Of a DNA stretch of 56,834 nt, positions 11,747-55,888 are shown piece after piece. Where the stretch lies: IMG/VR virus record IMGVR_UViG_3300042471_001823; one strand, written 5' to 3'. Every line of letters begins with the position of its first letter. The first letter of the stretch is position 1. Source of the DNA: an uncultured virus (IMG/VR IMGVR_UViG_3300042471_001823). Lineage: Duplodnaviria; Heunggongvirae; Uroviricota; Caudoviricetes. The notes below the pieces were generated by a model that saw nothing but the letters and a program-made list of their open reading frames with translations, was not told the DNA's origin and did no database searches. The position numbers were made by a program, and so were the translations under genes.

Positions 11747-11774
11747 AAACACCCTAGGTTAACCTAGGGTGTTT
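11747..11774. terminator. Bidirectional intrinsic terminator (perfect 28-bp palindrome)
   Basis: aaacaccctaggtt|aacctagggtgttt between convergent genes. Confidence 0.75.
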
Positions 11775-15817: not shown

Positions 15818-15847
15818 AACACCTCTCTTAAATTTAAGAGAGGTGTT
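15818..15847. terminator. Bidirectional terminator (perfect 30-bp palindrome)
   Basis: aacacctctcttaaa|tttaagagaggtgtt between convergent genes. Confidence 0.7.
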
Positions 15848-17373: not shown

Positions 17374-17416
17374 ACAAAAAAACGATCTTGGATTGGCATC
17401 AAGATCGTTTTTTTGT
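17374..17416 (+). terminator. Intrinsic terminator
   Basis: acaaaaaaacgatcttg-loop-caagatcgtttttttgt. Confidence 0.75.
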
Positions 17417-29294: not shown

Positions 29295-29603
29295 ATGTTA
29301 AGCGCTGAATCGTTAAAAGCAATTGCTGATCTTTCTGAATCTGTAGCAAATGCAGTAGCCCAATCCGTTTGTATTGAGATTTGGCATGGCTTTAATTACG
29401 GCTCAATAAAAATTGCGTCATCAGACAAGGGTGTTTTTGGACGGCTAAAAGAGGATCTTGGATGGAGCTACAGCGCTACTGAGCATGTTATTCATCACAG
29501 GTTCCAAAATGCTGAGACAGCGATGGCTGTCGCAAAAATCATTGAGGCTGATTTAAAAGGCAAAGGAATTGATGTTTGTACTAAACTAGGTAACACCAGA
29601 TGA
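29295..29603 (+). CDS. Hypothetical protein
   Basis: GAGG RBS; first gene of operon. Confidence 0.65.
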   Translation: MLSAESLKAIADLSESVANAVAQSVCIEIWHGFNYGSIKIASSDKGVFGRLKEDLGWSYSATEHVIHHRFQNAETAMAVAKIIEADLKGKGIDVCTKLGNTR

Positions 29604-30177: not shown

Positions 30178-31308
30178 ATGCTTTTCACTTCATTATTTTC
30201 TGGCTGTGGCGGGTTTGATTTAGGAGCAAGAGCGGCGGGTTTAGAACACTGCCAAGCCATTGAGTACGATCCGCAAATTGCTGAATTATTTAAGGCAAAT
30301 ATTGGTGATTGCTTTGTTGAAGATATTTTAACCGTAGACCCGTTAAAGTTTCACAAACCCGATTGGCTTCACGCATCTCCGGTCTGTAAAGCATTTAGCA
30401 TGGCTAACAGCAAAAAAGGTGAAGCACAATTTGATTTAGATTGCGCTAAAAAAGTTGCTGAATTTATCGATGTGCTACAGCCTGAGTATTTTAGCCTAGA
30501 GAATGTACAAGCGTATGCCAAGTCTGATAGTTTTCATATTATTGTGCAAACGCTTTACAGGTTAAATTATTGGGTTGATTATCAGGTTTTAAATGCTGCT
30601 GATTTTGGAGTCCCTCAGTCACGACGGCGCTTAATTTTATTGGCTAGACGTACCACTTTATTAGCTAGTAATCACGGGTTTATCCCACCATTACCACCCA
30701 AAGAAAAGCATATTGGTTGGTATGAGGCGATTAAAGACTTGGTGCATGATTTGCCTGATAGCAAGTTGGCTGATTGGCAGATTAAAGCATTGCCTAGAGA
30801 GATTAGGGATCATTTGTTGGTTGATGGTCAAAACGCATCACCACCTATTACGATAAGGCATAAGAATGAACCGTCATTTACTTGTACAGCTAATTGCGTA
30901 GAAAAAGGAGTGCCTAAAGCCATCCTAATCGAAAACACAGGGGCACGAAGCGATCGCCCATTACAAACAAGACAAGGTGATGAGCCATGTTGGACAATCA
31001 GGGCAATGGGTCAAGACGGACATTACCATAGGGCTAATGCTTTGTTGGTACATCCGACAGAACAAAGAAGCGTTAAACCTTATAAATATGCTGATGAAAC
31101 ATGCCCTAATCATGGCGGTGAAAACATTAAAGCCCTGCTAGAAAATGCCAAAATCAAAGCCTTAGACATCGCATGTTTAGCGCGGTTGCAGTCATTCCCA
31201 GATGATTACAAATGGTCTGGCAAAAAGTCAGTAGATGGCAAAGCGATTGGTAACTCAGTACCGCCATTGATGGCTCAAAAGATTGTAGGAGCGGTGGTAA
31301 AGCCTTAA
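30178..31308 (+). CDS. DNA (cytosine-5)-methyltransferase, orphan
   Basis: Motifs FSGCGG, SPVC, ENV, QSRRR, RLQSFP, IGNSVPP. Confidence 0.93.
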   Translation: MLFTSLFSGCGGFDLGARAAGLEHCQAIEYDPQIAELFKANIGDCFVEDILTVDPLKFHKPDWLHASPVCKAFSMANSKKGEAQFDLDCAKKVAEFIDVLQPEYFSLENVQAYAKSDSFHIIVQTLYRLNYWVDYQVLNAADFGVPQSRRRLILLARRTTLLASNHGFIPPLPPKEKHIGWYEAIKDLVHDLPDSKLADWQIKALPREIRDHLLVDGQNASPPITIRHKNEPSFTCTANCVEKGVPKAILIENTGARSDRPLQTRQGDEPCWTIRAMGQDGHYHRANALLVHPTEQRSVKPYKYADETCPNHGGENIKALLENAKIKALDIACLARLQSFPDDYKWSGKKSVDGKAIGNSVPPLMAQKIVGAVVKP

Positions 31309-31439
31309 AATCATCAATACTTTAAACCAATCGGGTGATAACAAACACTTATCACCCGATTGGTTTTGTATAACAAATACTGTGTTGACATTAATTATGC
31401 GATCACGTATATTTTGATTATTGAGTTCAAGATAAATCA

Positions 31440-31700
31440 ATGAAAGCGACCGTTTTAACTTCTACCATGCAGTACACCAAGCAAGTAATAAACAAGATTG
31501 CATATTACCAACTCCATGTTATGGAGTTTGCAGGGATGTTTCCAAACCCATTTGGAGAGGGTTTAGCGCCAAAGATGGGAAGATCAATTGACATCGGAGA
31601 GCCAACGACTGATCGCAAAAAGCTTAGCGATTATATCAAGAAGTGTCGAAAGTTGGGAGCAATAATAGAATTGGAAGGAGATCACATGAAATATTTCTAA
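31440..31700 (+). CDS. Hypothetical protein in promoter-ORF-terminator cassette
   Basis: TTGACA-17-TATATT at 31385; hairpins on both sides. Confidence 0.65.
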   Translation: MKATVLTSTMQYTKQVINKIAYYQLHVMEFAGMFPNPFGEGLAPKMGRSIDIGEPTTDRKKLSDYIKKCRKLGAIIELEGDHMKYF

Positions 31701-31715
31701 AACAATTTACACACC

Positions 31716-31757
31716 ACAAAAAAAGACCAGTGAATCAAATCACTGGTCTTTTTTTGT
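31716..31757. terminator. Bidirectional terminator
   Basis: aaaaaaagaccagtga-loop-tcactggtcttttttt. Confidence 0.8.
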
Positions 31758-32995
31758 TACATCTTTTTCACTTTCTCTAGTACACTCAGCGTATAGTCCC
31801 TGATTGACGGATAAGGGTTACCATTGTAGTGCTGTGGCGTAGGGTCATCAAACCAGTCCCTTTGTCCACTGTACCACTGAGAGGCAACCCGCCTGATTGC
31901 TTCATCAGGTGTTTTGGATTCCTTCAAAGCGGCTTCATAGTATTGAGTCAGCTTGCAGTCAATCACCGCTAATTGCAGTTTAGGACTTGCTTTAAAATCA
32001 GCCTCAGAGATAGTCTTACCTAAACACTCCTTAGTCCAAGGTGTGATATTCTCCGGCATGACTTGACCATAGCCTACCGCAAAACTATCAGTATTGACCG
32101 CTTTATGATTTCCTTGAGACTCTTGACTGATGATCGCCTTTCTGAGTTTGACCACTGGGGAATCATCACTGGTTGGCAATGCACCATTAAGCACAGCTTG
32201 GATTAACTTAGGGTGGGGCGCAACGGGTTGATTATCTTTCCTTAGCTCGAAATGCAGATGCTCACCAGTGCCCCTACCACTACTACCAGTCTCAGCAAAA
32301 CTTTCACCAATTTTCATCTTACCGTTACGACAATCATTAAGGTGAAATAATGCGATAGTGTAAGGCTTGAAATCGATGTAAGCGGCTAACCCTTCATGAT
32401 CGCCTTTGCGACACTCAACGGTTAATCCATTAGCAAAACCATAAAGTTTAGTGCCCGTAGGAGTACCAAGGTCAATGCCATTGTGGTGTTTTACCTCTTT
32501 GGTCACAGGATGAATCCGATTGCCAAAATCTGAGGTCACAGGGTAACCAGCGATCGCCTTTGGAGTAACTGTTGGTAATTCTTGATATTCCGTTACCACA
32601 GCAGCTAAATCGCGCCTTACAACTTGCCTATTGCTCATGAATAGGCTCATGCCCTCCATGTTTTCCTTAGTCGGATCGTAAGCGGGTGCTGGTACTGTTG
32701 GCAATCCTAAAATACGCCATGCAATCCTGAAAGTATTAGTAATCAACGGGACATTTGCTGATACTAAAAAAAATATAGTGACAGCAATCAGCTTTTTGTC
32801 TAAGGTGTTTAATGGGTTAGATAGTGGAGTTTTTCTCTTTACTTCCCTGTCCCTGAGAGCTAGATCCCTGTCTTTCAGGGCTACTTCCTTGTCTTTGAGG
32901 GTTAGATCCCTTTCCAGTAGAGCTAGTTCTACTTCCGCTTTCCGTACCTGCATCGCCGCTAATGCGCTGTTGTTCTGAGATAAGTCTGATGTCAT
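31757..32995 (-). CDS. Membrane-anchored peptidoglycan hydrolase: M23 peptidase plus lysozyme/transglycosylase-like domain
   Basis: Coiled coil, TM (LIAVTIFFLVSA), VTSDFGNRIHP..HNGID, TGEHLHFE, then AIISQESQGN...GYGQVMP. Confidence 0.85.
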   Translation of the reverse strand: MTSDLSQNNSALAAMQVRKAEVELALLERDLTLKDKEVALKDRDLALRDREVKRKTPLSNPLNTLDKKLIAVTIFFLVSANVPLITNTFRIAWRILGLPTVPAPAYDPTKENMEGMSLFMSNRQVVRRDLAAVVTEYQELPTVTPKAIAGYPVTSDFGNRIHPVTKEVKHHNGIDLGTPTGTKLYGFANGLTVECRKGDHEGLAAYIDFKPYTIALFHLNDCRNGKMKIGESFAETGSSGRGTGEHLHFELRKDNQPVAPHPKLIQAVLNGALPTSDDSPVVKLRKAIISQESQGNHKAVNTDSFAVGYGQVMPENITPWTKECLGKTISEADFKASPKLQLAVIDCKLTQYYEAALKESKTPDEAIRRVASQWYSGQRDWFDDPTPQHYNGNPYPSIRDYTLSVLEKVKKM

Positions 32996-33356
32996 TGTTG
33001 ATGTTAACCTCTAATTCCACACCGTCTTTAGCCGTTTTAAATACCAATGTGCCGTCAACTTTTCTGCAAAATGGCTGCCCTAAAAGAATCGCCCTCTCAT
33101 CTTTGTCAGCTTGCTGAATTTTGCTAATATCGGTTAGCTTAACCGCTGTGGTTTGTACCCCTACCTCAGCACACCCTTTGGTGTTGCCTGACATTAGCTG
33201 TACCATGCTGGGAGCTTTGAAAAATAATGTCGCAAATGGATCGGTATTGATTTCGGGTACAAAATAATTACCGTCTACTGATACCATCTTAGAAGCAAAT
33301 CCCATAAATGACAATACAGTAATTCCAATTAAAGCTGTTGTTTTTTTGCTTTTCAT
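32817..33356 (-). CDS. Secreted/membrane hypothetical protein
   Basis: MKSKKTTALIGITVLSFMGFA signal/TM; 3' end overlaps next gene. Confidence 0.6.
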   Translation of the reverse strand: MKSKKTTALIGITVLSFMGFASKMVSVDGNYFVPEINTDPFATLFFKAPSMVQLMSGNTKGCAEVGVQTTAVKLTDISKIQQADKDERAILLGQPFCRKVDGTLVFKTAKDGVELEVNINNDIRLISEQQRISGDAGTESGSRTSSTGKGSNPQRQGSSPERQGSSSQGQGSKEKNSTI

Positions 33357-33455
33357 TTTGTGTTGACCTTGTTTGTTTTATAGTAATAGTTCCAATGGTA
33401 ATAACTTGCTCTACAGCAATGGCTTTGAGGGCAATAACTCTCAGCACCATAAAAA

Positions 33456-33674
33456 TTATTTACTTGTCTTACTGCACACATGCTCTATAGCAATCAACTG
33501 ATCCTCATAGGCTTTATATTGAATCCGTACAAGCCTAGGTAATCGCCATAGGTTTAGTTGGCAGTTTTCAACCGCTTTGAGGTAACTAGGAGTTCTGCGG
33601 ACAGCGGTTTGACTTTCTTTTGAAAATAGCACTAGGGTTAACCCTAGTGCTATTAATGCACATCTTAATTTCAT
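33456..33674 (-). CDS. Small signal-peptide protein
   Basis: MKLRCALIALGLTLVLFS. Confidence 0.55.
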   Translation of the reverse strand: MKLRCALIALGLTLVLFSKESQTAVRRTPSYLKAVENCQLNLWRLPRLVRIQYKAYEDQLIAIEHVCSKTSK

Positions 33675-33695
33675 TTAGCTGATCAATTGTTTTGT

Positions 33696-34140
33696 TTAGC
33701 GGCTTTCAACGGTGGCTGCTTTTTTGCGAATTTGAGCAGCGTAGGCTTCATGCATTTTTGCGGATTCAGTGGTTTCAGCTAATGTGTCACGGCTTGTATT
33801 AGCCATAGCAGACACAGCGGGTTTCACAAAAAAACCAACATTAGCCCCAAGGTTAGCAGGATTCCAGTTAGTCCCAGTAACTTGGGGTCTACCATCTGCA
33901 ATTAAGTAGACCAAAAAAGTTAGCACCGCAGTACCACCAAACAAGAAAATAAATAGCTTGCCTACCGTCCCAAAGGTGTCATGCTTAACCCAGTTCAAAA
34001 TCAAACCAATTAATTCTCTTAGTTCTGCTTTTTGGGGATTTAGTACCACCAAAGCATTGCCCGTTTCGGGGTCAATCACTCGGTCAATATTGCCATCACC
34101 GCGATCATTGACTCCTATAGTGCGTCTTACATCTGCCATT
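33696..34140 (-). CDS. Membrane protein
   Basis: ATG (MADVRR) with GAGG RBS; TM LFIFLFGGTAVLTFLVYLIA. Confidence 0.65.
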
Positions 34141-34355
34141 GTTAACCTCACTCTTTTTTGTTTGAACCTTGCTGATAATAATTTTATCAACAATTTTATT
34201 TGATAGCAACCTTACTGGCAATAATTTTGTTTAGCAATAATTTTACCAATAACAATTTTATCAACATTCTTACCAGTAACGACGGTCTTTTGTACCGCCA
34301 CGCCTTACAAGGGTAAGGACGGCTCCTTTTGTTTATAGTCTGTGGAGTCAAGACT

Positions 34356-35687
34356 TTAGGCTAAATCTTTAATCAAATCAGCCATGATTGAAAGCATAGA
34401 ATCTTCTGGAAGTTCTGCTCTTTGGATAGGCAAAATACCTTTAGGCGGTACACCTATTTTTTCAAATTTGTTTGACCATCCATGAGTAGGATGCACTGCG
34501 ATTGATGCAGGTAAAGTACCACCAACAAAACAAGGGTATGCAATATGATCATTCCTGATTTTTAAATTATCTAGTTCAGGTTTTGCATAGCCACATAATT
34601 TAATCATGCCAAAACTGTTTCTTTCAGCGGCTGACATTTCAAATTCGCTACAGTTGACGTTGTGGGTAATAACAATAACAGTCATTCCGAACTTACGCCC
34701 CTCGATCAGTAGACTGCGAATTAGCATTTGAACTGGAGTAGGATCAATTTTGTTCTTTTTCAGGTTTAAAAGGAGTGAGGTAAACTCATCAATTAAAACA
34801 ATAATGTTTTCACCCACTGGCAATCCTTTTTTAAATAGCTTTTTACGGCTATCTAATTCTTTATCTAAAGCGTCTACCAATTGCATGATCATGTCAAAGT
34901 CAGACACAACTTCACTCATGTCAATCCCGCCAAATTTCCATGATTGACTGCCATGATGATCTAAAACAAAAATTACAGACGGTTCTTTTTTGGTAAGCCA
35001 ACCTAATAACCAAGTTGCCACACAGCTTTTCCCAGCGCCACTGTTTCCAGTGATCATAAACCCTTGGGTTTGACCATACACCTCATCCCAGTCAAACACA
35101 GGGGCTTTAGGCATTGTTAACTTAAGCCTTTTTGTGGCAACCGCCAAATCCCAGCTAGTGTCACTAGCTTTAGGAACCTGAGTATTAAGTCTTAATGGCA
35201 CTGGCTTTGGTTCGTTAACTGCGTCATCACTTAAACTATCAGTCACGTCATCAACCAATCTATCGGTTAAGTTGTCAGTCACATCATCGCTTAAGCCATC
35301 ATCATCGGACGATTTCGACAGATCCAACTCATCAGACCCATGCTCATCGTCAACGATATTATTTACTGCCGTCTTAGGCATAGCGATCGGCTGTGGCTGA
35401 TGACGCTGTGGCTTATTTGATTTGCCATCTTTTTCACCCCAATTCACGCCATTCAAGGCGGCGAATACACACCCCGCACCTACCAACCCATTAACCAATG
35501 CTAATGGTACGTTGGCTTGTGATGGCGTATAAAACGCAATTTTTTCACCAGTTGCGCCGGCATTATAGGCAGCTAAAACAATGTCTCTAGATGCCCCTGG
35601 AGTAACGGGAATAGCAGACACTATAGCGTTAGCCGCTAGTGCGATGCCTGCTACCCCTAGCAGTCCTTTTTCAAATAAGTTGTCCAT
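34356..35687 (-). CDS. Membrane-anchored FtsK/HerA-superfamily P-loop ATPase (coupling protein/TraB-like)
   Basis: Two N-terminal hydrophobic segments, acidic linker, GNSGAGKS, IVLIDEF, EGRKFGMTVIVITH. Confidence 0.8.
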   Translation of the reverse strand: MDNLFEKGLLGVAGIALAANAIVSAIPVTPGASRDIVLAAYNAGATGEKIAFYTPSQANVPLALVNGLVGAGCVFAALNGVNWGEKDGKSNKPQRHQPQPIAMPKTAVNNIVDDEHGSDELDLSKSSDDDGLSDDVTDNLTDRLVDDVTDSLSDDAVNEPKPVPLRLNTQVPKASDTSWDLAVATKRLKLTMPKAPVFDWDEVYGQTQGFMITGNSGAGKSCVATWLLGWLTKKEPSVIFVLDHHGSQSWKFGGIDMSEVVSDFDMIMQLVDALDKELDSRKKLFKKGLPVGENIIVLIDEFTSLLLNLKKNKIDPTPVQMLIRSLLIEGRKFGMTVIVITHNVNCSEFEMSAAERNSFGMIKLCGYAKPELDNLKIRNDHIAYPCFVGGTLPASIAVHPTHGWSNKFEKIGVPPKGILPIQRAELPEDSMLSIMADLIKDLA

Positions 35688-35696
35688 CAGCTTGTT

Positions 35697-36296
35697 TTAC
35701 TTCCCTTTCTTGGTTTCAGCCTTAGCCAGTTGCTCGGCAGCAACTTCTGTAGCTGAATTGTGGCGGTTTGCAGTGACTTGACGGTATTCAGAAAGTACTA
35801 ATCCTAATACTGCGGGTTTTGGTGAAATCGGAGTGATATTCCCCTGATAAGCCATGTGAATACCTTGCACTTGCATGGTTAGGGATGCAATTTCTCTAGG
35901 GTTTTTGGCACGTAAAGCGGCTTCAGCCCTTGGAATAATCGCCTTAAGCATATCGTCATAAACACAGGTGCGATTTTGCCGAAAACACTTAGATTCTTTG
36001 TTTTCAGTGATTTCTTTTTGGGCAAAGACTGCTACCTGAAATGCATAATTACTGACTGCAACATTGTTGGCATCTTGCAAAGCCGTAAGCATTGCGTTGT
36101 CAATTTCACTGGTTGGAATCTTTTGCCCATTAAGCACAGCGGTTCCATAAGCTGAGAGCGTGGGATTTTCAGGCGGGTTGATTGTGTGCTCTTTTGGGGC
36201 ATTGCTCATTAACGCCCCAATGCCAACAGCGGATACAGTAACCAACCCTACCAACCCAGCACCTAACAGCCCTAGCTTGTTAAGGTTGGTTGGCAT
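35697..36296 (-). CDS. Single-pass membrane protein
   Basis: ATG at 36296 (MPTNLNKLGLLGAGLVGLVTVSAVGIGAL) just after upstream stop; GGAG RBS. Confidence 0.65.
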   Translation of the reverse strand: MPTNLNKLGLLGAGLVGLVTVSAVGIGALMSNAPKEHTINPPENPTLSAYGTAVLNGQKIPTSEIDNAMLTALQDANNVAVSNYAFQVAVFAQKEITENKESKCFRQNRTCVYDDMLKAIIPRAEAALRAKNPREIASLTMQVQGIHMAYQGNITPISPKPAVLGLVLSEYRQVTANRHNSATEVAAEQLAKAETKKGK

Positions 36297-36298
36297 AA

Positions 36299-36661
36299 TT
36301 ACTCTTGCTCTTGGCTTGCTGACAGGGACAATAGCGCCGCTAGATCGGGGATCTCGACCTCGAACCCCGCGCTTTGGCGAAAATTTGCAAGGGATTCCCC
36401 CACGTTTGACCATACTTGGTTAGCGCCAGCGGCAATTTCTAGGGTGGTGTTCATACTAACAAGCTGGTTGAACATCGCAGCGTTTTGCTTGGCAATAACC
36501 GATGCTTGGCTTTGCATTTGTTCGATTGCTTGCAGTTGTGCCGCTTGTGCCTGTGATGCGACGGTGGCAAGCTGGCTGCCTGCGTCTACGGTTTGTTGCT
36601 TAGGCTTGTTGGACTTGGGATTGGTATTGTCCAAATCTTCTAACTTAATTTTGTCAGCCAT
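36299..36661 (-). CDS. Gln/Ala-rich helical protein
   Basis: ORF with GAGG RBS. Confidence 0.65.
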   Translation of the reverse strand: MADKIKLEDLDNTNPKSNKPKQQTVDAGSQLATVASQAQAAQLQAIEQMQSQASVIAKQNAAMFNQLVSMNTTLEIAAGANQVWSNVGESLANFRQSAGFEVEIPDLAALLSLSASQEQE

Positions 36662-36724
36662 GATGTTGCCTCATTAATGATTTTTTTGTGTTTGACGATA
36701 GCTAATAGCAGTTGTGTTTGACGA

Positions 36725-37057
36725 TTAAGAAGCAATTGCTTCAACAATTTCGCAGGGGATTCCTTTCTTTTCCAGTACTAATTCCACAAATACAGGGGGA
36801 TAAAACGGCAATCTACCAACCTTAACTGGTTCGTACCGTTTTTTCTGCTCGGTGGTGAAATTACCAGATCTAATCGCCTCTCTTGTTTCGGCAACTAAGT
36901 CTCTTACATAAGAGTCGCTAAAGCCTCGAATCTTTTTAAAAGCGTCTCTTGGATTTGTGTGAAACTTTTGCAGTGCCTCTCCAAAATAATAACCTCGAAT
37001 TGCTTCAGCAATCATTGGGACGGTCATAGACTCCCTGATCTTTACTTTTTTGTCCAT
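36725..37057 (-). CDS. Basic hypothetical protein, possible operon regulator
   Basis: First gene after promoter and hairpin; GAGG RBS. Confidence 0.6.
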   Translation of the reverse strand: MDKKVKIRESMTVPMIAEAIRGYYFGEALQKFHTNPRDAFKKIRGFSDSYVRDLVAETREAIRSGNFTTEQKKRYEPVKVGRLPFYPPVFVELVLEKKGIPCEIVEAIAS

Positions 37058-37080
37058 ACAGCCTCATTCTGTTAACCTTC

Positions 37081-37169
37081 AAGCGCTTCTGTGGCGCTTC
37101 ACTTTTTTTTGAAGCGCCACAGAAGCGCTTCACTGTTACAACAATATAGCTAAACTATTTATCTGTCAA
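37081..37169 (-). promoter_or_regulatory. Sigma70 promoter followed by perfect 21-bp inverted repeat
   Basis: TTGACA-17-TATTGT (37169-37141); aagcgcttctgtggcgcttca-N8-tgaagcgccacagaagcgctt (37081-37130). Confidence 0.75.
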
Positions 37170-37270
37170 GCTTTTTCTTATAGGTCAATACAAAAGATAT
37201 AATCAATTGATATATCGTTTATTTTTCTTGTATTGAACGTTCTTTTAATGATTAATTCTCACGGGTCACC

Positions 37271-37843
37271 ATGCACACTAATTCCCCATTAATAATTCAC
37301 TATTACGCATCTGACTTCAAAACGGTTAATGGCATAGTGGCAATAGGTCAGGTTTCGGCATACCATCACGGGTTATTCATGATGTTGCTATCCAAGGTCA
37401 CGAATACCTTTGAGTCGATCAACAAAGTGTATATAGCTGAGATTGCTAAAATGTTGCCAGACTTGCTGACTGGTAAAAAAGGGATTGACCTGACTAGGAT
37501 TAATGATGCTGACTTGTACCGTCTATTTGTGGGAAGTGAGAGCCTATTGATGGAATTGCACAAACCACAGCACATAGACCAGATTGAAAGAGATAGTGAA
37601 ACCGCGCCGTTTCCTGTGACTAGTGAACCGATGGCAGACATGTTGGCTAATCTAACCGCTGCTACCGAAAGTGTGAGTGATGCCCAATGGTTAATCAAAA
37701 ACTGTTCAGTAAATTTTCTGAATGCGTTTAGTTGTATATTTTCTGAGATTCACCGTGACCCACAGGAAAGGATGGACGAGTATCGCCTTAATGCCTATAA
37801 GACGCAATTCCCTGAAAATTCTATGATTGCGCTGGGGATGTAG
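37271..37843 (+). CDS. Hypothetical protein
   Basis: 190 aa ORF followed by terminator. Confidence 0.6.
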   Translation: MHTNSPLIIHYYASDFKTVNGIVAIGQVSAYHHGLFMMLLSKVTNTFESINKVYIAEIAKMLPDLLTGKKGIDLTRINDADLYRLFVGSESLLMELHKPQHIDQIERDSETAPFPVTSEPMADMLANLTAATESVSDAQWLIKNCSVNFLNAFSCIFSEIHRDPQERMDEYRLNAYKTQFPENSMIALGM

Positions 37844-37859
37844 GGTTGGGTAATTGCCA

Positions 37860-37904
37860 ACACAAAAAAGCACCTGAGTTTTAGTTCTCAGGTGCTTTTT
37901 TGTG
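37860..37904. terminator. Bidirectional terminator
   Basis: aaaaaagcacctgag-loop-ctcaggtgctttttt. Confidence 0.8.
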
Positions 37905-37914
37905 TTGGGTCTCT

Positions 37915-40582: not shown

Positions 40583-40656
40583 TTTTATTTCTACCCAACA
40601 AAAAAGACCTTGATCAGAAAAATCAAGGTCTTTTTTGTTGCTGAAATTAATTGAAG

Positions 40657-43422: not shown

Positions 43423-43554
43423 TTTTTTTAGCAACACAAAAAAACGGTAGTACGAATTTACTACCGTTTTTTTGTGTTGATCGGCAATGATTTATATATT
43501 GACAAATAATAATAATTGGCTTATTGTATTGTTAAATTAACAGGATCAAAAGAA

Positions 43555-49349: not shown

Positions 49350-49353
49350 CTCT

Positions 49354-49409
49354 TAACCAACAAAAAAGCTTATCCGATAGTCACAGGATAAGCTTTTTTG
49401 TTGGTTAAC
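49354..49409. terminator. Bidirectional terminator
   Basis: aaccaacaaaaaagcttatcc-loop-ggataagcttttttgttggtt. Confidence 0.8.
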
Positions 49410-49417
49410 CAATTATT

Positions 49418-49942
49418 TCAACTAACCGCCATAAACCGTTTTAAAGTCGATGCAGACCAGATTCTCATGTCGTAATCATCGGACTTAGAAGTTTGAATCA
49501 GTGCTGTAATCGCATCGTCTCCACCAATTAGCCCTAAGCTTTTGATGGCATAACGACGGACTAAATAGCATTTATCATCAAGCGCTTTGATTAAGCTAGG
49601 GACTGCCAACCGATCATTAATCAAGCCTACGGTTTCTGCCACAGCAGCCTTTACATCATTGTCAGGGTCACTGGCTAACATCTTGGTTAATTGTAGCGTC
49701 AAGTCATTGGTTGATTCCAATCCTTTAGTTGATGACGACTCTGGCTTTTTAGTTGCTGATGCCGCTATTAGCCCTAACACCTTCACAGACACATAGCGGA
49801 TTACGTCTTTTTCATGGGACAATCCATTGATAAAAACCTGTGGGTCTGCATCGGTTAGGTCAATGCCTGTAAGATTGGCAAGTTGTTCAGCTTCTAGGAA
49901 ATCAGCATTGTCAATTTGAAAAAGTAATTCGTTAACACTCAT
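49418..49942 (-). CDS. PBS-lyase-type HEAT-repeat protein
   Basis: DVKAAVAETVGLI..RLAVPSLIKALDD..YLVRRYAIKSLGLIG...AITALI repeats. Confidence 0.85.
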   Translation of the reverse strand: MSVNELLFQIDNADFLEAEQLANLTGIDLTDADPQVFINGLSHEKDVIRYVSVKVLGLIAASATKKPESSSTKGLESTNDLTLQLTKMLASDPDNDVKAAVAETVGLINDRLAVPSLIKALDDKCYLVRRYAIKSLGLIGGDDAITALIQTSKSDDYDMRIWSASTLKRFMAVS

Positions 49943-52105: not shown

Positions 52106-54583
52106 TTAAATCGGCTTACTCCCCGTCGTAATCTTAATTGGACTAGCAGGATTAACCCCAACGACTTGCCAAGCGATCGCCCGTAGGCAGTCACTAAACT
52201 CAAACTTCCCGCCTAGTTTTCCAGTGAACTCCCAAATAGTGCTACGCTCTAACTCAGCGGTAAGCTTAGGGGTATTATCCATCACCCATAGTCTAGTGTC
52301 TCGAAAAGCGCGGTTAACGCACGATACGGACTCAACCATAGGTAATTCACTGGAATAACATTGCGATGCTCTGACGTTGTTTTTACGGCAATACACCCAA
52401 AAATCAAGCCATCCTAGAACATGTTCATGGGTGGGAATACCATAGATTAACAACTTACTGCCTTTAGCCTGTGACTTAACCCATTGGCATAGAGCGCCAT
52501 GATTTTCGGCTTTGTGTTCCCCTAACACGATTAATGCCTTATCTTGATAGGTTGCAGTAATGGCGGTCAGGCTTAACCAGTTAATACTAACCATTAGCTG
52601 ACTGCTAGACGTAACCTTAAAGTAGCTTAACTCATCAGCACGGACAATATGCAAGTCATAATTAAAGTAGTTGTAAGCAGCATCGGGACTAGCGCGTTTA
52701 GGATTGCGTAGTTTATTCATCAACACATAAAAGCTAGTTTCAGCAAACACAAACGCCATAAACAAGTCATCAATACTGTCTGAAGCCCGTTGCCATACAC
52801 CCTTGGTATCACGCCACACGCCTGTAAAATGCTTTACTGGACTCATGGCAGTACGGTCTGTTAGCCACTTCTCCCAATCTTCATTCAGCTTAACCTTATT
52901 CAGGATAAAGGCATTCAGGATGTTGTTAGCAAAGTAATTGGTGTCTAGTTTCCAACACTCACCGCGTCTACCACCATCATAAATAATCTTGTTTTCCACA
53001 TTATTGTTAATCGGTTTATAGATCTGATCACCCAAGTCTAGGCAAGTTGATTCAGACATTTCGATAGCTGTTTCCCTCGATGGCTCATTGTCCATGATGC
53101 CATAGACGCAACCAAACGACTCAAGCAATGCCTTAACATCACTACGCTGAATAGCGGCGCAATACCTGACATGGCGTACCGTCTGCTCTATTGCCTGATT
53201 GGTGAGCAACCGCTGGTGATCGTCTGGTAAGTAGTAATCAACAATCGTAATCCAATCTTCACCACGCCCTTGGTCAATACCCGCCAAAGTGTAATCAGGC
53301 TTACGATGTGGCAGATTCTGGGCGATCGCCTCTTTAATCATATCTGTGGTGATTGCCGCTTTGCTTGCCTCACTGGTGTGCCCCAAAGCCTGTTGAATCC
53401 AGTCCGTCGGATTAAATATCTCAATGCCACTACGGATCAACTCAGCGGCTAGATTAAATTCAGTTTCACGAAGCAATGGGGATAAGTGGATCGTGCATCG
53501 CCACCGCTTTTGTTGCAAGCCCTCAGTCAGGCTACCCAAAAACTCAGCTAATGATTTTTGGGTTTTGAGGCATCTCATGTGGGATTCCCACGCCCTAGTC
53601 TTTTGGGGTAATTCTGCTTCACACTTTTGGCAACCAATGTATGCAGTATCAATCCGATTGCTTTGGTCATGACAAAACCAGTTTAAGGGACGGTTAGAAG
53701 CTGAGAAATAGCTCACAATATCGCGTCCTAAAGCGTCTCTAATAGTTGCTGGTCTAAGTAGACATCCTTTCGGGTCTAATGCCTGTAGATGCCCACATTT
53801 AGGGCATGTGACGTGTGGAAAGAAGTGATAATCACTGTCTTTGATAACTGACTCAATCCCACCGCCACTACCCTGAGTACCTAGTTCCCTGATCGGTCTT
53901 GATGCAATCTTTGAAGCGTCTAACCGTCTAGGCAGTGGGTCTGCTGCACCTAATGGGTACTGTGACCGCTCTTCTAGCCATAGCACATCACCTTGGAATG
54001 AAGCCGCTGCCGATCCTACCGCTGCACCTGTACTACCGCTATCGCCTGTACTGGCATAACTAAACATCATGTATGCCCCTTCTACAGGGTATTGGGTCAC
54101 ATTACCTTTACCTGGTCTAACTACTTCAATTCCGTCGTAATACATCAGTGTTTCCCATGTTGATGCGACAGGGTGAAACTGGTTGCGACTGTTTCTAAGT
54201 AAGCTGTTTAACTTGTCATAAAACCAGACGGTATTAACCCTACCGGAATAAAGACTATCAACGGCGCACAGCGTATTCACAAATGTTTTAGCAATCTGTG
54301 CGGCTCCAGTGGTTAATACATGGGCAACCCGAAAGTCGCCAACTAGTAAGCAGGTTTCTTCAAACCAAGGTCTCCACCTGATTTCTTCACCGCTCTCAGT
54401 TCTGCCATACTTTTTAGCGCGTTCTAAGAAGCCTTGACCGCCTCTTTTCCAGACATCAGCTAAAAATTCTGCCCTAAGTTCGGCTGGGGTTTTACGCCTA
54501 ACCGCCTGATCTTCTATCGCGTCTTGGTTTAAGTATTCGTAACTTCTTTGCGCGTAATTGTACAGGTCTAGCCATTTGGACAT
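52106..54583 (-). CDS. terL: Terminase large subunit, lambda GpA-like, with C-terminal extension
   Basis: Walker A GAAQIAKT, Walker B VLWLEE, PHVTCPKCGHLQAL and CQKC Zn motifs, nuclease LAGIDQG and DDLFMA. Confidence 0.8.
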   Translation of the reverse strand: MSKWLDLYNYAQRSYEYLNQDAIEDQAVRRKTPAELRAEFLADVWKRGGQGFLERAKKYGRTESGEEIRWRPWFEETCLLVGDFRVAHVLTTGAAQIAKTFVNTLCAVDSLYSGRVNTVWFYDKLNSLLRNSRNQFHPVASTWETLMYYDGIEVVRPGKGNVTQYPVEGAYMMFSYASTGDSGSTGAAVGSAAASFQGDVLWLEERSQYPLGAADPLPRRLDASKIASRPIRELGTQGSGGGIESVIKDSDYHFFPHVTCPKCGHLQALDPKGCLLRPATIRDALGRDIVSYFSASNRPLNWFCHDQSNRIDTAYIGCQKCEAELPQKTRAWESHMRCLKTQKSLAEFLGSLTEGLQQKRWRCTIHLSPLLRETEFNLAAELIRSGIEIFNPTDWIQQALGHTSEASKAAITTDMIKEAIAQNLPHRKPDYTLAGIDQGRGEDWITIVDYYLPDDHQRLLTNQAIEQTVRHVRYCAAIQRSDVKALLESFGCVYGIMDNEPSRETAIEMSESTCLDLGDQIYKPINNNVENKIIYDGGRRGECWKLDTNYFANNILNAFILNKVKLNEDWEKWLTDRTAMSPVKHFTGVWRDTKGVWQRASDSIDDLFMAFVFAETSFYVLMNKLRNPKRASPDAAYNYFNYDLHIVRADELSYFKVTSSSQLMVSINWLSLTAITATYQDKALIVLGEHKAENHGALCQWVKSQAKGSKLLIYGIPTHEHVLGWLDFWVYCRKNNVRASQCYSSELPMVESVSCVNRAFRDTRLWVMDNTPKLTAELERSTIWEFTGKLGGKFEFSDCLRAIAWQVVGVNPASPIKITTGSKPI

Positions 54584-55327: not shown

Positions 55328-55888
55328 ATGAAAGCGATCGCCGTAGGCAACATCCCAAACCATCAATACATTTGGATTGATTCTCAGTTTACGCACAAAG
55401 ATCCGATTGGCTTTATCCCTGCTGTGTGGTTTGCGATGAATAGCGTTGTGGGCAGAACATGGGGCATTCATGTGATGCTTGAATCAGGGGCATTTTTTCG
55501 CAATCTACCGCCACAGGCAATCTCCTTTACCCATAATCCCCAAGAATCAAATTGGACAGCCCAAGATGCTCAAAAATGGGACTGCTATAGCCAAAACTGG
55601 ACAAGCATTCAATACGAATATCTAGCAGGGCTAAGGTGTAAAGCTGTTATCGATGATAATCGCACCCTTATGGGTTGTTATTTGTTCTCAGTATGCCCCT
55701 TAGACGACGGCTTTACTGCTTACCCAGAGCAGGCGAAAGAATTTATGTTCATTGCCTTGGATAATGGACGGCTAACCATTCAGCCAACAAACCGTGTTGT
55801 ATTTCAGGACAAAAGTTTTACTGTTAATCCTGATATGGGCATTCCAAAGGGGCTGAAGGTTAGTAAGGAGATTTATTCTGTGGAGTGA
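55328..55888 (+). CDS. Conserved phage protein of unknown function
   Basis: NIP, ESGAFFRNLP, WDCYS, LDNG....QPTNR motif series. Confidence 0.7.
   Translation: MKAIAVGNIPNHQYIWIDSQFTHKDPIGFIPAVWFAMNSVVGRTWGIHVMLESGAFFRNLPPQAISFTHNPQESNWTAQDAQKWDCYSQNWTSIQYEYLAGLRCKAVIDDNRTLMGCYLFSVCPLDDGFTAYPEQAKEFMFIALDNGRLTIQPTNRVVFQDKSFTVNPDMGIPKGLKVSKEIYSVE

Follow-up and report, generated by a model that had tools for sequence, protein, structure and literature searches.

Systems that pair a membrane-held, FtsK-like motor with partners at the cell wall are known from plasmids of Clostridium and Streptomyces. pCW3 of Clostridium perfringens encodes a coupling protein, TcpA, with two N-terminal transmembrane (TM) helices and, in the same locus, a membrane-anchored two-enzyme wall hydrolase, TcpG; comparable wall hydrolases are CwlT of ICEBs1, PrgK of pCF10 and TraG of pIP501. 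The TraB/Spd systems of the Streptomyces plasmids pSVH1 and pIJ101, which mediate conjugative transfer of double-stranded DNA and intramycelial spreading, likewise have a membrane-associated FtsK-like motor on a mobile element without a relaxase, and the accompanying spd operons hold three to seven diverse genes which, in the sections of the source used here, are described as unmatchable between plasmids (PMC4447253). Here, we describe a cluster of eight co-directional open reading frames (ORFs), g1 to g8, running on the minus strand from position 37057 down to 31757 of a 56,834-nucleotide stretch of DNA (IMG/VR record IMGVR_UViG_3300042471_001823, from an uncultured tailed virus), which is called the window throughout. 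This cluster represents an envelope module that is conserved among cyanophage-like tailed phages. As modelled, two N-terminal helices hold its core, a hexamer-type FtsK/TcpA-like ATPase (g4), in the cytoplasmic membrane. The core is accompanied by two predicted bitopic proteins (g3 and g5) and a predicted secreted protein (g7), g3 and g7 each with a conserved Cys pair, and by the hydrolase g8, which would be anchored in this membrane too and expose its M23 and SLT-like domains on the outer face. By analogy with the plasmid systems, we give roughly one chance in three to the reading that the cluster is a TraB/Tcp-like apparatus that would move DNA across membrane and wall.

The evidence for a module comes from other phages. 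A scan of viral contigs with the window ATPase alone gave no match, and the module was reached instead via a profile of g8, which found 54 viral loci with a g8 relative, seven of them having a same-strand match to the ATPase-family hidden Markov model (HMM) 1–4 kb upstream (E 1.9e-16 to 4e-4). Five uncultivated tailed-phage contigs (L048 and L050–L053) repeat the order g3–ATPase–g5–g7–hydrolase of the window, together with its topology: a soluble protein of ~120 aa, a 1-TM protein of ~220–237 aa, an ATPase of 352–386 aa with two N-terminal TM segments, a 1-TM protein of ~155 aa, a secreted Cys-pair protein and a ~390-aa enzyme combining a TM segment with M23 and SLT-like parts. The first four of these genes abut or overlap by 4 nt. 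The counterparts of g8 in these viral loci are 43% identical to it, and homology is detectable for g8, g7 and g3, while g2 and g5 have positional or compositional counterparts only. Looser versions occur in L059, L066 and L078, with ATPases of 505–529 aa and, in L066 and L078, the M23 and SLT-like parts in separate genes; L057 and L065 have the hydrolase without a recognisable ATPase. The loci scanned against PHROGs (L048, L053, L057, L066 and L078) resemble phage genomes, with portal, terminase or head matches in L048, L053 and L078. Within the 20-kb loci, the related viral records have little else in common with the window; the association of the ATPase with membrane proteins and an anchored wall hydrolase is conserved across diverged phages. 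The record of L053 (G004, locus L102; 75,523 bases with direct terminal repeats), a complete viral genome with the module, encodes in addition a 60-aa ORF that scores 19.3 bits for NblA, below the cut-off of 25 and the only such match in the five related viral records; this is a weak hint that it may be a cyanophage.

g4 (34356..35687, minus strand; 443 aa) is a membrane-anchored P-loop ATPase of the FtsK/TcpA type, in which TM helices at residues 7–30 and 58–81 (TM calls were made with a hydropathy script) are followed by a disordered acidic linker (86–174) and a RecA-type domain (178–443). Walker A (G214/G217/K220), Walker B (D300-E301), R281 and an EGRKFG motif that includes R331-K332 are invariant across 50 family members. 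The Pfam matches of g4, to AAA_22, FtsK_SpoIIIE, Zot, DUF87 and TrwB, are all sub-threshold: FtsK_SpoIIIE (PF01580) and DUF87 (PF01935) score 16.7 and 15.8 bits against gathering scores of 24 and 23.2, and TrwB_AAD_bind is matched at E 0.032. Among 50 relatives, 11 match FtsK_SpoIIIE and 13 match DUF87 (E ≤ 0.01). An AlphaFold model, built with 50 relatives, has one RecA-type ATPase domain, with a predicted local distance difference test score (pLDDT) above 90 at residues 180–440. Foldseek ranked the FtsK motor, TcpA of pCW3 and EccC/EssC at the top, and VIA-align gave Z scores of 15.7 for TcpA (root-mean-square deviation 3.3, 209 residues aligned, ~15% identity), 15.4 for FtsK, 14.2 for EssC (13.6–14.2 for EssC/EccC), 13.1 for HerA, ~10–11 for RecA/Rad51 and 10.4 for the packaging ATPase B204 of STIV2. 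Because of these fold ranks and the invariant motifs, we place g4 with the membrane-anchored FtsK/TcpA/EssC translocases. An earlier note on this DNA, made from the letters alone, had called it a TM-anchored ATPase of FtsK/HerA type, and the nearest folds (TcpA, FtsK, EssC and HerA, Z 13–15.7) and conserved motifs agree with that call, Pfam remaining sub-threshold; the grouping with non-translocating families which the note had named as a refutation was not seen among the top folds. Its view that the ATPase is unlikely to be the packaging motor is borne out by a separate large terminase (52106–54583, 825 aa; phrog_675, 3.3e-12) and by the lack of grouping with viral packaging ATPases.

The presence of EssC and EccC among the nearest folds, with both Foldseek and the Z scores given above, raises the alternative of type VII-style protein export, in which the single-domain ATPase and its bitopic partners would export a phage protein, g2 and the hydrolase being candidates. 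The top NCBIfam match of g4, T7_EssCb_Firm, is of this kind, although weak (E 7.9e-4, far below the cut-off), and a small acidic helical protein, g2, does accompany the ATPase together with bitopic membrane partners. However, EssC and EccC have two or three tandem FtsK-like ATPase domains, plus FHA or DUF domains, and a WXG100 substrate, whereas g4 has one ATPase domain and g2 matches neither WXG100 nor any other Pfam family at E ≤ 0.1. In addition, g7 and g8 carry their own signal peptide or anchor and therefore need no special exporter, and relatives of g4 on plasmids and prophages have tails of a DNA-binding type. We consider such export distinctly unlikely.

g8 (31757..32995, minus strand; 412 aa) is a predicted bifunctional, membrane-tethered wall hydrolase, in which an N-terminal heptad-repeat segment precedes a TM segment at residues 67–89; in several relatives an N-terminal coiled-coil-like stretch is likewise followed by a hydrophobic segment. 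The M23 peptidase domain (~150–262) has HxxxD and HxH zinc motifs (HNGID and HLH in the alignment), meets the gathering score of Peptidase_M23 (PF01551; E 6.7e-11, 42.7 bits against a cut-off of 28.7) and matches ShyA and other M23 enzymes in the PDB, to 7e-13 (1e-12 to 1e-13 for those like ShyA). The C-terminal 140 residues (~281–412) resemble SLT enzymes: Pfam SLT (PF01464) scores 19.5 bits against a cut-off of 21.3, the profile finds only EmtA in the PDB (E 0.18), and a precomputed match to PF01464 exists for one relative of g8 while a second is named ‘Transglycosylase SLT domain’. All 21 relatives aligned keep E292-S293, and in the GYGQVMP and WYSG stretches they vary little or not at all. 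When described earlier as a TM-anchored M23 plus lysozyme-like hydrolase, the protein was correctly given its anchor and M23 domain, while the lysozyme-like part falls below the Pfam cut-off and is backed by the conserved Glu-Ser, GYGQVMP and WYSG. The only match to the SLT-like domain in the plasmid collection is in a 16.9-kb Streptomyces ‘plasmid’ (CP108637.1, L104) that resembles a small phage genome, with genes nearly all in one direction, a LysM protein, a GH25 enzyme and an SSB.

Enzymes of these kinds also occur in virions, and the membrane proteins and hydrolase might be packaged and used for envelope crossing at DNA entry. Tape-measure and internal virion proteins often contain an M23 or lysozyme-like domain; against the GenBank phage collection, g8 gave distant matches of tape-measure type only, and there are matches to PHROG tape-measure families, to tape-measure proteins of Thermus and Bacillus phages and to the PDB entries ‘Gp16’ and ‘Internal protein’, besides the plasmid-collection match next to a LysM protein. 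We nevertheless find packaging scarcely credible, as a membrane-anchored Walker ATPase, the signal peptide of g7 and translational coupling imply assembly in the membrane of the infected cell and not in the capsid, and the cluster lies outside the structural gene block, both in the window and in the cultured phage PaV-LD discussed below.

The remaining proteins of the cluster are small. g1 (36725..37057, minus strand; 110 aa) is basic, with an isoelectric point (pI) of 9.4, a codon score of 0.22 and no family match; g2 (36299..36661, minus strand; 120 aa) is Q/A-rich, acidic (pI 4.5) and predicted to be soluble; and g3 (35697..36296, minus strand; 199 aa) has an N-terminal signal-anchor helix as its one TM segment, an outer domain of ~165 aa with a conserved Cys pair, and an end 9 nt before g4. 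These three are the basic first protein, the Q/A-rich helical protein and the TM protein of the earlier note, the start of g3 being corrected to 36296 because a 99%-identical database protein (P0154) is likewise of 199 aa; two further relatives of g3 (P0155 and P0156) are 68–70% identical. g1 is variable, in a stretch left uncovered by a diverged variant in run X6 (loose end at 36682), and gave no signal with the profile of the winged-helix tail of the plasmid ATPases. The positional analogue of g2 in the five related phage loci (cl32) is of like size and composition, without detectable sequence similarity, and the positional counterpart of g3 (viral family cl21) aligns to it by hhalign with a probability of 68% (E 4.8e-5). 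Comparison with another lake population, for which 40 of the 173 differences were listed, gave 13 synonymous and four non-synonymous changes in g2, eight and one in g3, and five and nine in the disordered linker of g4; read from these counts, the population differences show purifying selection.

Three more TM or signal proteins had been proposed between the ATPase and the hydrolase, and two of them, g5 with one TM segment and g7 with a signal-like N-terminus, were upheld. g5 (33696..34193, minus strand) is 165 aa from a TTG start, or 147 aa from the ATG at 34139, and is bitopic (TM 73–101). Its counterpart in the related phage loci has the same position and a like size and topology, although the similarity to viral cl22 is not significant by hhalign and consists of a short common DR(D)GDGxID stretch; this stretch, near the N-terminus of g5 (34070–34100, residues ~30–40) and of its counterparts (8831–9301 in L053), resembles a calcium-binding loop, a likeness that is not statistically significant. 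g7 (32817..33356, minus strand; 179 aa) is a secreted protein: behind the signal peptide come a ~100-aa domain, in which a Cys pair is conserved, and a tail of low complexity, and the 3′ end of the gene overlaps g8. Homologues of g7 are present in all six viral loci L048–L053 (BLAST E 6e-9 to 4e-8; hhalign probability 96.8%, E 2.8e-10). The third candidate, g6 (33456..33674, minus strand), a 72-aa ORF with a signal-like N-terminus, is doubtful because codons 7–17, its ‘signal peptide’, are the translation of a perfect 30-bp palindrome (33625–33654), because its codon score is 0.02, compared with 0.13–0.22 for the other cluster genes, whose called frames these scores support, and because a counterpart is missing in all six related viral loci. 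The palindrome has 15-nt arms, no spacer, a GTTAAC centre and no T-run after it, and two similar zero-spacer palindromes lie between genes, at 15818–15847 and 11747–11774; such palindromes could be protein-binding sites or RNA-processing hairpins. None of g5–g7 matched a PHROG holin or spanin, and g3 and g7 gave no usable match in the ESM Atlas.

A cultured phage, PaV-LD (NC_016564) of the filamentous cyanobacterium Planktothrix agardhii, the only cultured carrier found, has the same order and topology as the window, from membrane protein or proteins through the ATPase and small proteins to a TM + M23 protein and a lysozyme-type gene: ORF129L (143 aa, two TM segments), ORF128L (269 aa, one TM segment), ORF127L (475 aa, two N-terminal TM segments, annotated ‘FtsK/SpoIIIE protein’), the three small proteins ORF126L–ORF124L, ORF123L (TM + M23, annotated ‘peptidase’) and ORF122L (annotated ‘endolysin’). 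ORF127 matches two ATPase-family HMMs (5e-9 and 8.2e-16) and aligns with the L059 ATPase over 456 residues at 29% identity (E 2e-41); it was too distant for the tblastn search of GenBank phages and surfaced with HMMs only. ORF123 is 34% identical to g8 (E 1.8e-14) and matches the g8-family HMM at 4e-23. In contrast to the window, the M23 and lysozyme-type enzymes of PaV-LD are separate genes, ORF122 is not matched by the SLT-like part of the g8 profile, ORF127 is only ~22% identical to g4 (E 2.4e-6) and has a C-terminal extension that g4 lacks, and the other cluster proteins have no detectable similarity to those of the window. PaV-LD also encodes an integrase, a ParB-like protein, a replication initiator and NblA, and, among its 142 annotated features, ORF122 and ORF123 are the sole wall-hydrolase-like products.

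Two of these PaV-LD proteins have been studied. Meng et al. (2022) report that ORF123 and ORF124 each inhibit the growth of E. coli and of Synechocystis, that the two act together and that their TM segments are required; the portion of the article on which we draw names them endopeptidase and holin and mentions neither ORF122 nor the FtsK-like gene (PMC9096620). This toxicity, cooperation and TM dependence favour a lysis or egress module, in which g8 (ORF122/123 in PaV-LD) would be a membrane-tethered endolysin, g5 or a similar small membrane protein a holin or regulator, and the ATPase and its partners would control or energise wall breakdown late in infection. The identity between ORF123 and g8, and the lack of any other annotated wall hydrolase in PaV-LD, are in line with such a module, as are the nearest PHROGs of g8, which are ‘endolysin’ and ‘metallo-endopeptidase’ families, and the window ORFs scanned, which contain no wall hydrolase besides g8. 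However, the toxicity of an over-expressed anchored wall hydrolase in a heterologous host does not amount to a lysis role in infection, and it leaves the ATPase unexplained; we know of no lysis system that requires an FtsK-type ATPase. L048 has the full module and yet, beside its terminase, a separate canonical endolysin (phrog_181, 4.6e-63), and L057 likewise has separate endolysin-family genes, which speaks for translocation and against the module being simply a lysis kit. The linkage of ATPase and hydrolase is kept across diverged phages, with overlapping genes, and the translations of g5–g7 show no lipobox-type spanin candidate. In addition, the window is only part of a genome, because the protein cluster of the ATPase itself sits on a contig of 118,834 bases, so that a further endolysin may lie beyond it. 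The holin–endolysin–spanin scenario, which the earlier note had set against its own proposal, stands as a live alternative: the M23 gene of PaV-LD and the gene before it are published as endopeptidase and holin in the portion cited (PMC9096620), and in L048 the canonical endolysin is separate. We take a lysis role to be the main alternative, although on balance a doubtful one.

The ATPase has a second habitat. An exhaustive HMMER search of 1.84 billion proteins found 174 representatives of the family (E ≤ 1e-3), which is confined to mobile elements, and the carriers of a sister branch of the phage ATPases are small plasmids and prophages, free of relaxases, in mostly filamentous cyanobacteria. 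A tblastn search of plasmids gave 14 records, all typed as non-mobilizable, of which 13 are from cyanobacteria (Planktothrix 10, Annamia 2, Pseudanabaena 1). On the plasmids, the neighbours are Rep proteins of the CyRepA, DUF3854 or PriCT type and ParA or a serine recombinase, and small, often overlapping genes, one of them multi-TM, lie upstream of the ATPase; 186 neighbour proteins in the plasmid and genome loci included no relaxase or VirB4 family by Pfam at E ≤ 1e-4. L040 and L041 look like prophages, with genes for tail, terminase, ParB-like and sigma-factor proteins (L007 is from the same contig as L041), and L004 is an integrase-bearing element with a primase-helicase. By a crude motif script, a TM-like segment is present in 79 of the 101 relatives with a long N-terminus, and, among the 84 relatives with an HPTH motif, 58 have a tail of at least 90 aa and 15 have two CxxC pairs. 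These C-terminal extensions are zinc-ribbon-like in some proteins and winged-helix-like in the one that was folded, P0006, the model of which (mean pLDDT 86.9) ends helix-helix-helix-strand-strand, a winged-helix topology, at a pLDDT of ~97; the profile of this tail found insignificant matches only among PDB sequences. In the model, the layout of P0006 is the membrane anchor, motor and DNA-reader of FtsK, SpoIIIE and TraB, and TcpA was again the best structural match for a plasmid relative of g4. In a tree rooted on a distant Chloroflexales group, the window clade is a separate long branch, and the tree therefore does not show capture from a plasmid. Nine Chloroflexales loci (26–29% identity) were not counted in the family, having ORC/CDC6- and AAA_16-type matches and, in two proteins, a fusion to TPR. 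A small 1-TM protein with a common ...P(V/P)VIINNN tail is encoded upstream of the ATPase in an Annamia plasmid (L002, 801–1013) and in a Synechococcus-labelled metagenome-assembled genome (L008, 6809–7036), in both in the order soluble helical protein, 1-TM protein, coiled-coil protein, multi-TM protein and ATPase.

Another possible role is that of a septal segregation pump like SpoIIIE or FtsK: it would clear copies of an episome or phage genome from closing septa, or push them across, for inheritance by both daughter cells or by resting cells. The FtsK-like layout of anchor and motor, with the winged-helix-like tail of the folded plasmid relative, would suit it; many carriers are small plasmids, and ParB-like genes are present in PaV-LD, L040 and L041. 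A pump working at an open septum needs neither a wall hydrolase nor periplasmic partners, yet these are the conserved companions in phages, and several carrier plasmids already have ParA. We judge such a pump very unlikely.

For the DNA-transfer apparatus, the proposed mode of action follows Streptomyces TraB with Spd, or TcpA with TcpG of pCW3. g3, g4, g5, g7 and g8 would form a complex spanning the cytoplasmic membrane and the peptidoglycan, g8 would open the wall locally, and the ATPase would drive a macromolecule, most likely double-stranded phage DNA, through a channel of the partner proteins. The module has no outer-membrane component and would therefore suit passage from cell to cell where periplasm and outer membrane are continuous, as they are along cyanobacterial filaments. 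In Anabaena, periplasm, sacculus and outer membrane are described, in the part of the source cited, as common to the cells of the filament (PMC12288457). The most specific form of the proposal is that the phage genome passes virion-free to the neighbouring cell of a cyanobacterial filament, g8 opening the shared septal wall and g4 pumping double-stranded DNA through a g3/g5/g7 channel, with the sister branch on small relaxase-free plasmids serving as a TraB-style conjugation motor so far unrecognised in cyanobacteria; in this full form we regard it as unlikely.

Several results weigh against DNA transfer. The modelled fold does not separate DNA pumps from the protein-secreting EssC/EccC, which lie within ~1.5 Z units; g4 ends 41 residues past its HPTH motif, without a C-terminal DNA-binding (gamma winged-helix) domain, and by hhalign the phage-type ATPases show no DNA-binding tail like that of the plasmid relatives. 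The ATPase alone is shared with the plasmids, the accessory families of which show no similarity to g1–g3 or g5–g8 by hhalign, and the SLT-like domain of g8 has no match on cyanobacterial plasmids, its one plasmid-collection match being the phage-like Streptomyces record. No VirB4-, VirB6- or relaxase-like gene was found in the window: over the 59 ORFs scanned (8 + 28 + 23), Pfam at E ≤ 0.01 names no relaxase or VirB4, as had been noted before, no T4CP family and no VirB6-type polytopic protein. The repeats of 31300–37400 include no clt-like array of 8-bp repeats. The growth inhibition by ORF123 and ORF124, and the place of ORF122 and ORF123 as the sole wall hydrolases of PaV-LD, belong on the same side. 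DNA transfer or spreading is something that we infer, because only the ATPase is shared with plasmids, the tail is lacking and an endopeptidase and a holin have been reported in PaV-LD. The earlier suggestion that the operon could move phage DNA across septa or between cells without virions gains from the motor fold, the conserved linkage and the DNA-reader-type tails and relaxase-free carriers of the plasmid and prophage branch, and loses from the standing lysis scenario and the absent DNA-binding tail; the survey of gene neighbourhoods that it called for did find relatives of the ATPase on plasmids of filamentous cyanobacteria without a recognised relaxase, among accessory genes that are unrelated.

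Taken singly, the parts of the module (FtsK-like motor, M23 peptidase, SLT-like enzyme) are of familiar types, and its PaV-LD instance is annotated gene by gene. In the literature, we found no paper treating the cluster as one module, noting its recurrence in phages or describing the plasmid branch. What is new here is that the module order recurs in phages, including the cultured PaV-LD, and that the ATPase has a sister branch on relaxase-free plasmids and prophages. If the module moves DNA, it would provide a virion-independent route of phage spread and a relaxase-free, FtsK-driven transfer system outside Actinobacteria, and both phage infection and plasmid mobility would have to be counted differently in bloom-forming cyanobacteria, where these plasmids are now typed ‘non-mobilizable’. 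If it is a lysis device, it would be an ATPase-linked, membrane-tethered two-enzyme system, still unlike the holin–endolysin–spanin scheme. Both can be tested, as PaV-LD is available in culture together with its host and two of its cluster genes have already been cloned.

The signals around the genes bear on their transcription. The co-directionality of the eight genes, all on the minus strand, was noted correctly before; the single promoter proposed with it was not upheld, and the gene count is sound for seven of the eight, g6 being doubtful. A promoter-like site, TTGACA-17 nt-TATTGT, lies upstream of g1 (37141..37169, minus strand) and matches 10 of 12 consensus positions, but a single promoter is not established because such sites occur in the region at chance frequency (13 found; 12.8 ± 3.7 expected from shuffles) and because further hexamers lie in the gap between g4 and g5. 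That spacer (34194..34355, minus strand; 162 nt) holds promoter-like hexamers and direct repeats of 17–24 nt, so that two transcription units are possible and the spacer may be an internal promoter; a 51-aa ORF within it (34196–34351; codon score −0.04) is probably not coding. Between the promoter-like site and g1 is a long inverted repeat (37066..37145) with 36-nt arms of 83% complementarity and a perfect 21-bp core (37081–37130), which may be an operator or a 5′-leader hairpin and at which contigs of runs X4 and X6 part from the window (loose ends at 37077 and 37108). The g1–g2 spacer has two identical 14-nt direct repeats, TTGTGTTTGACGAT, 26 nt apart (36686..36725). Four tandem 21-nt repeats (32839..32923) lie within the g7/g8 overlap of 137–179 nt and encode heptad repeats in both reading frames; one unit is absent (at 32890) in the contig of run X4, another lake run, and one is also absent in a 98%-identical database protein (P0157, 405 aa). 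The overlap is not an artefact of the window, because six related loci overlap too, by 86–149 nt. Other repeats and palindromes of 31300–37400 showed no link to the ATPase. Downstream, a perfect 18-bp stem with A-run and T-run flanks (31716..31757) forms a bidirectional terminator in common with the convergent gene 31440–31700. It belongs to a family of long perfect hairpins with flanks (C)AACAAAAAA ... TTTTTTGTTG which resemble bidirectional terminators between gene blocks (examples are 49353–49408, 37857–37908, 43432–43479, 40596–40640, 17374–17416 and 31716–31757); perfect intergenic hairpins are many in the window, compared with 0–2 in shuffled sequence at the same threshold.

The surroundings of the cluster are phage-like, with a DnaN-like clamp, helicases, thymidylate kinase, dCTP deaminase, an HNH nuclease, a C5 methylase, an RnlB-type antitoxin, a NUDIX hydrolase, a HEAT/PBS-lyase-repeat protein and a virion structural protein. 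A 185-aa protein at 29600–30157 matches the RnlB antitoxin family (PF15933, E 3e-20) and, because its gene adjoins that of a C5 cytosine methylase (30178–31308), an anti-defence pair is suggested. Such accessory or anti-defence-type neighbours (the RnlB-like antitoxin, C5 methylase, dCTP deaminase and NUDIX hydrolase), the weak PADLOC matches of g4 to mad8 (E 3.7e-7) and HerA, and the confinement of the ATPase family to mobile elements would fit an exclusion or conflict module, in which a membrane complex blocks or expels competitor DNA or remodels the wall against superinfection. The other seven proteins, however, have no PADLOC match, and of five relatives tested two matched mad8 weakly and three matched nothing; a wall-cutting enzyme is not expected in such a system, and such cassettes do not usually keep a multigene core across phages. 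We hold exclusion to be quite improbable.

The HEAT/PBS-lyase-repeat protein (49418–49942; HEAT_2 8e-18, HEAT_PBS 2e-8) and the product of 55328–55888, which falls in a PHROG family with a ferredoxin description (phrog_3704, 3e-26), hint at a cyanobacterial host. The large terminase found no match by tblastn (E ≤ 1e-5) in 50,697 GenBank phage records and matches a PHROG profile only. The phage lineage is distant from all cultured ones. No match in the GenBank phage collection was obtained with the cluster DNA, the window ATPase, two viral ATPases or a Planktothrix plasmid ATPase either. The cluster is present in 20 lake or freshwater metagenome runs from 18 studies, possibly including the source of the window itself, with at least half of its sampled words in only seven of the 20; when other lake runs were mapped, some bins had no cover in some runs. 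A scan of metagenome contigs with the ATPase gave relatives at ≤ 35% identity only, so that close relatives could not be read in genomic context.

The likeness to TraB/Spd and Tcp drawn in the earlier note survives in the TcpA/FtsK fold and in the linkage of motor, membrane proteins and hydrolase, while g4 has no DNA-binding tail and only the ATPase is shared with plasmids. Cluster J mycobacteriophages likewise encode an FtsK-type motor, with no role assigned there; proteins of the type of Omega gp203 have a gamma-like DNA-binding domain and no membrane domain, the reverse of g4 with its anchor and no gamma, and no wall hydrolase partner has been described for the Cluster J genes. In keeping with a transfer role, the Streptomyces plasmid-phage pZL12, as far as the cited section goes, transfers via a tra gene (PMC3583192). 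The TraB/Spd operons resemble window-type modules in their small membrane- and wall-binding proteins and overlapping stop and start codons and, unlike the window, have no M23/SLT hydrolase, as far as the source describes them in the sections used (PMC4447253). TraB differs from g4 in its C-terminal DNA-binding domain and in the cis-acting clt site that this domain binds, an array of 8-bp direct repeats of which none was seen among the repeats around g4; g4 falls short of membership of the TraB/FtsK group at the sequence level, its FtsK_SpoIIIE match being below the Pfam cut-off, and the host of the window phage, unlike Streptomyces, is presumably diderm. The winged-helix-like tail that follows the motor in the folded plasmid relative P0006 is, in turn, a likeness to TraB. 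For pCW3, TcpF (VirB4-like), TcpH (VirB6-like), TcpC (VirB8-like) and TcpM (the relaxase) have no Pfam-named counterpart in the window, whereas TcpA, at ~15% identity, is the best structural match of the g4 ATPase domain (Z 15.7).

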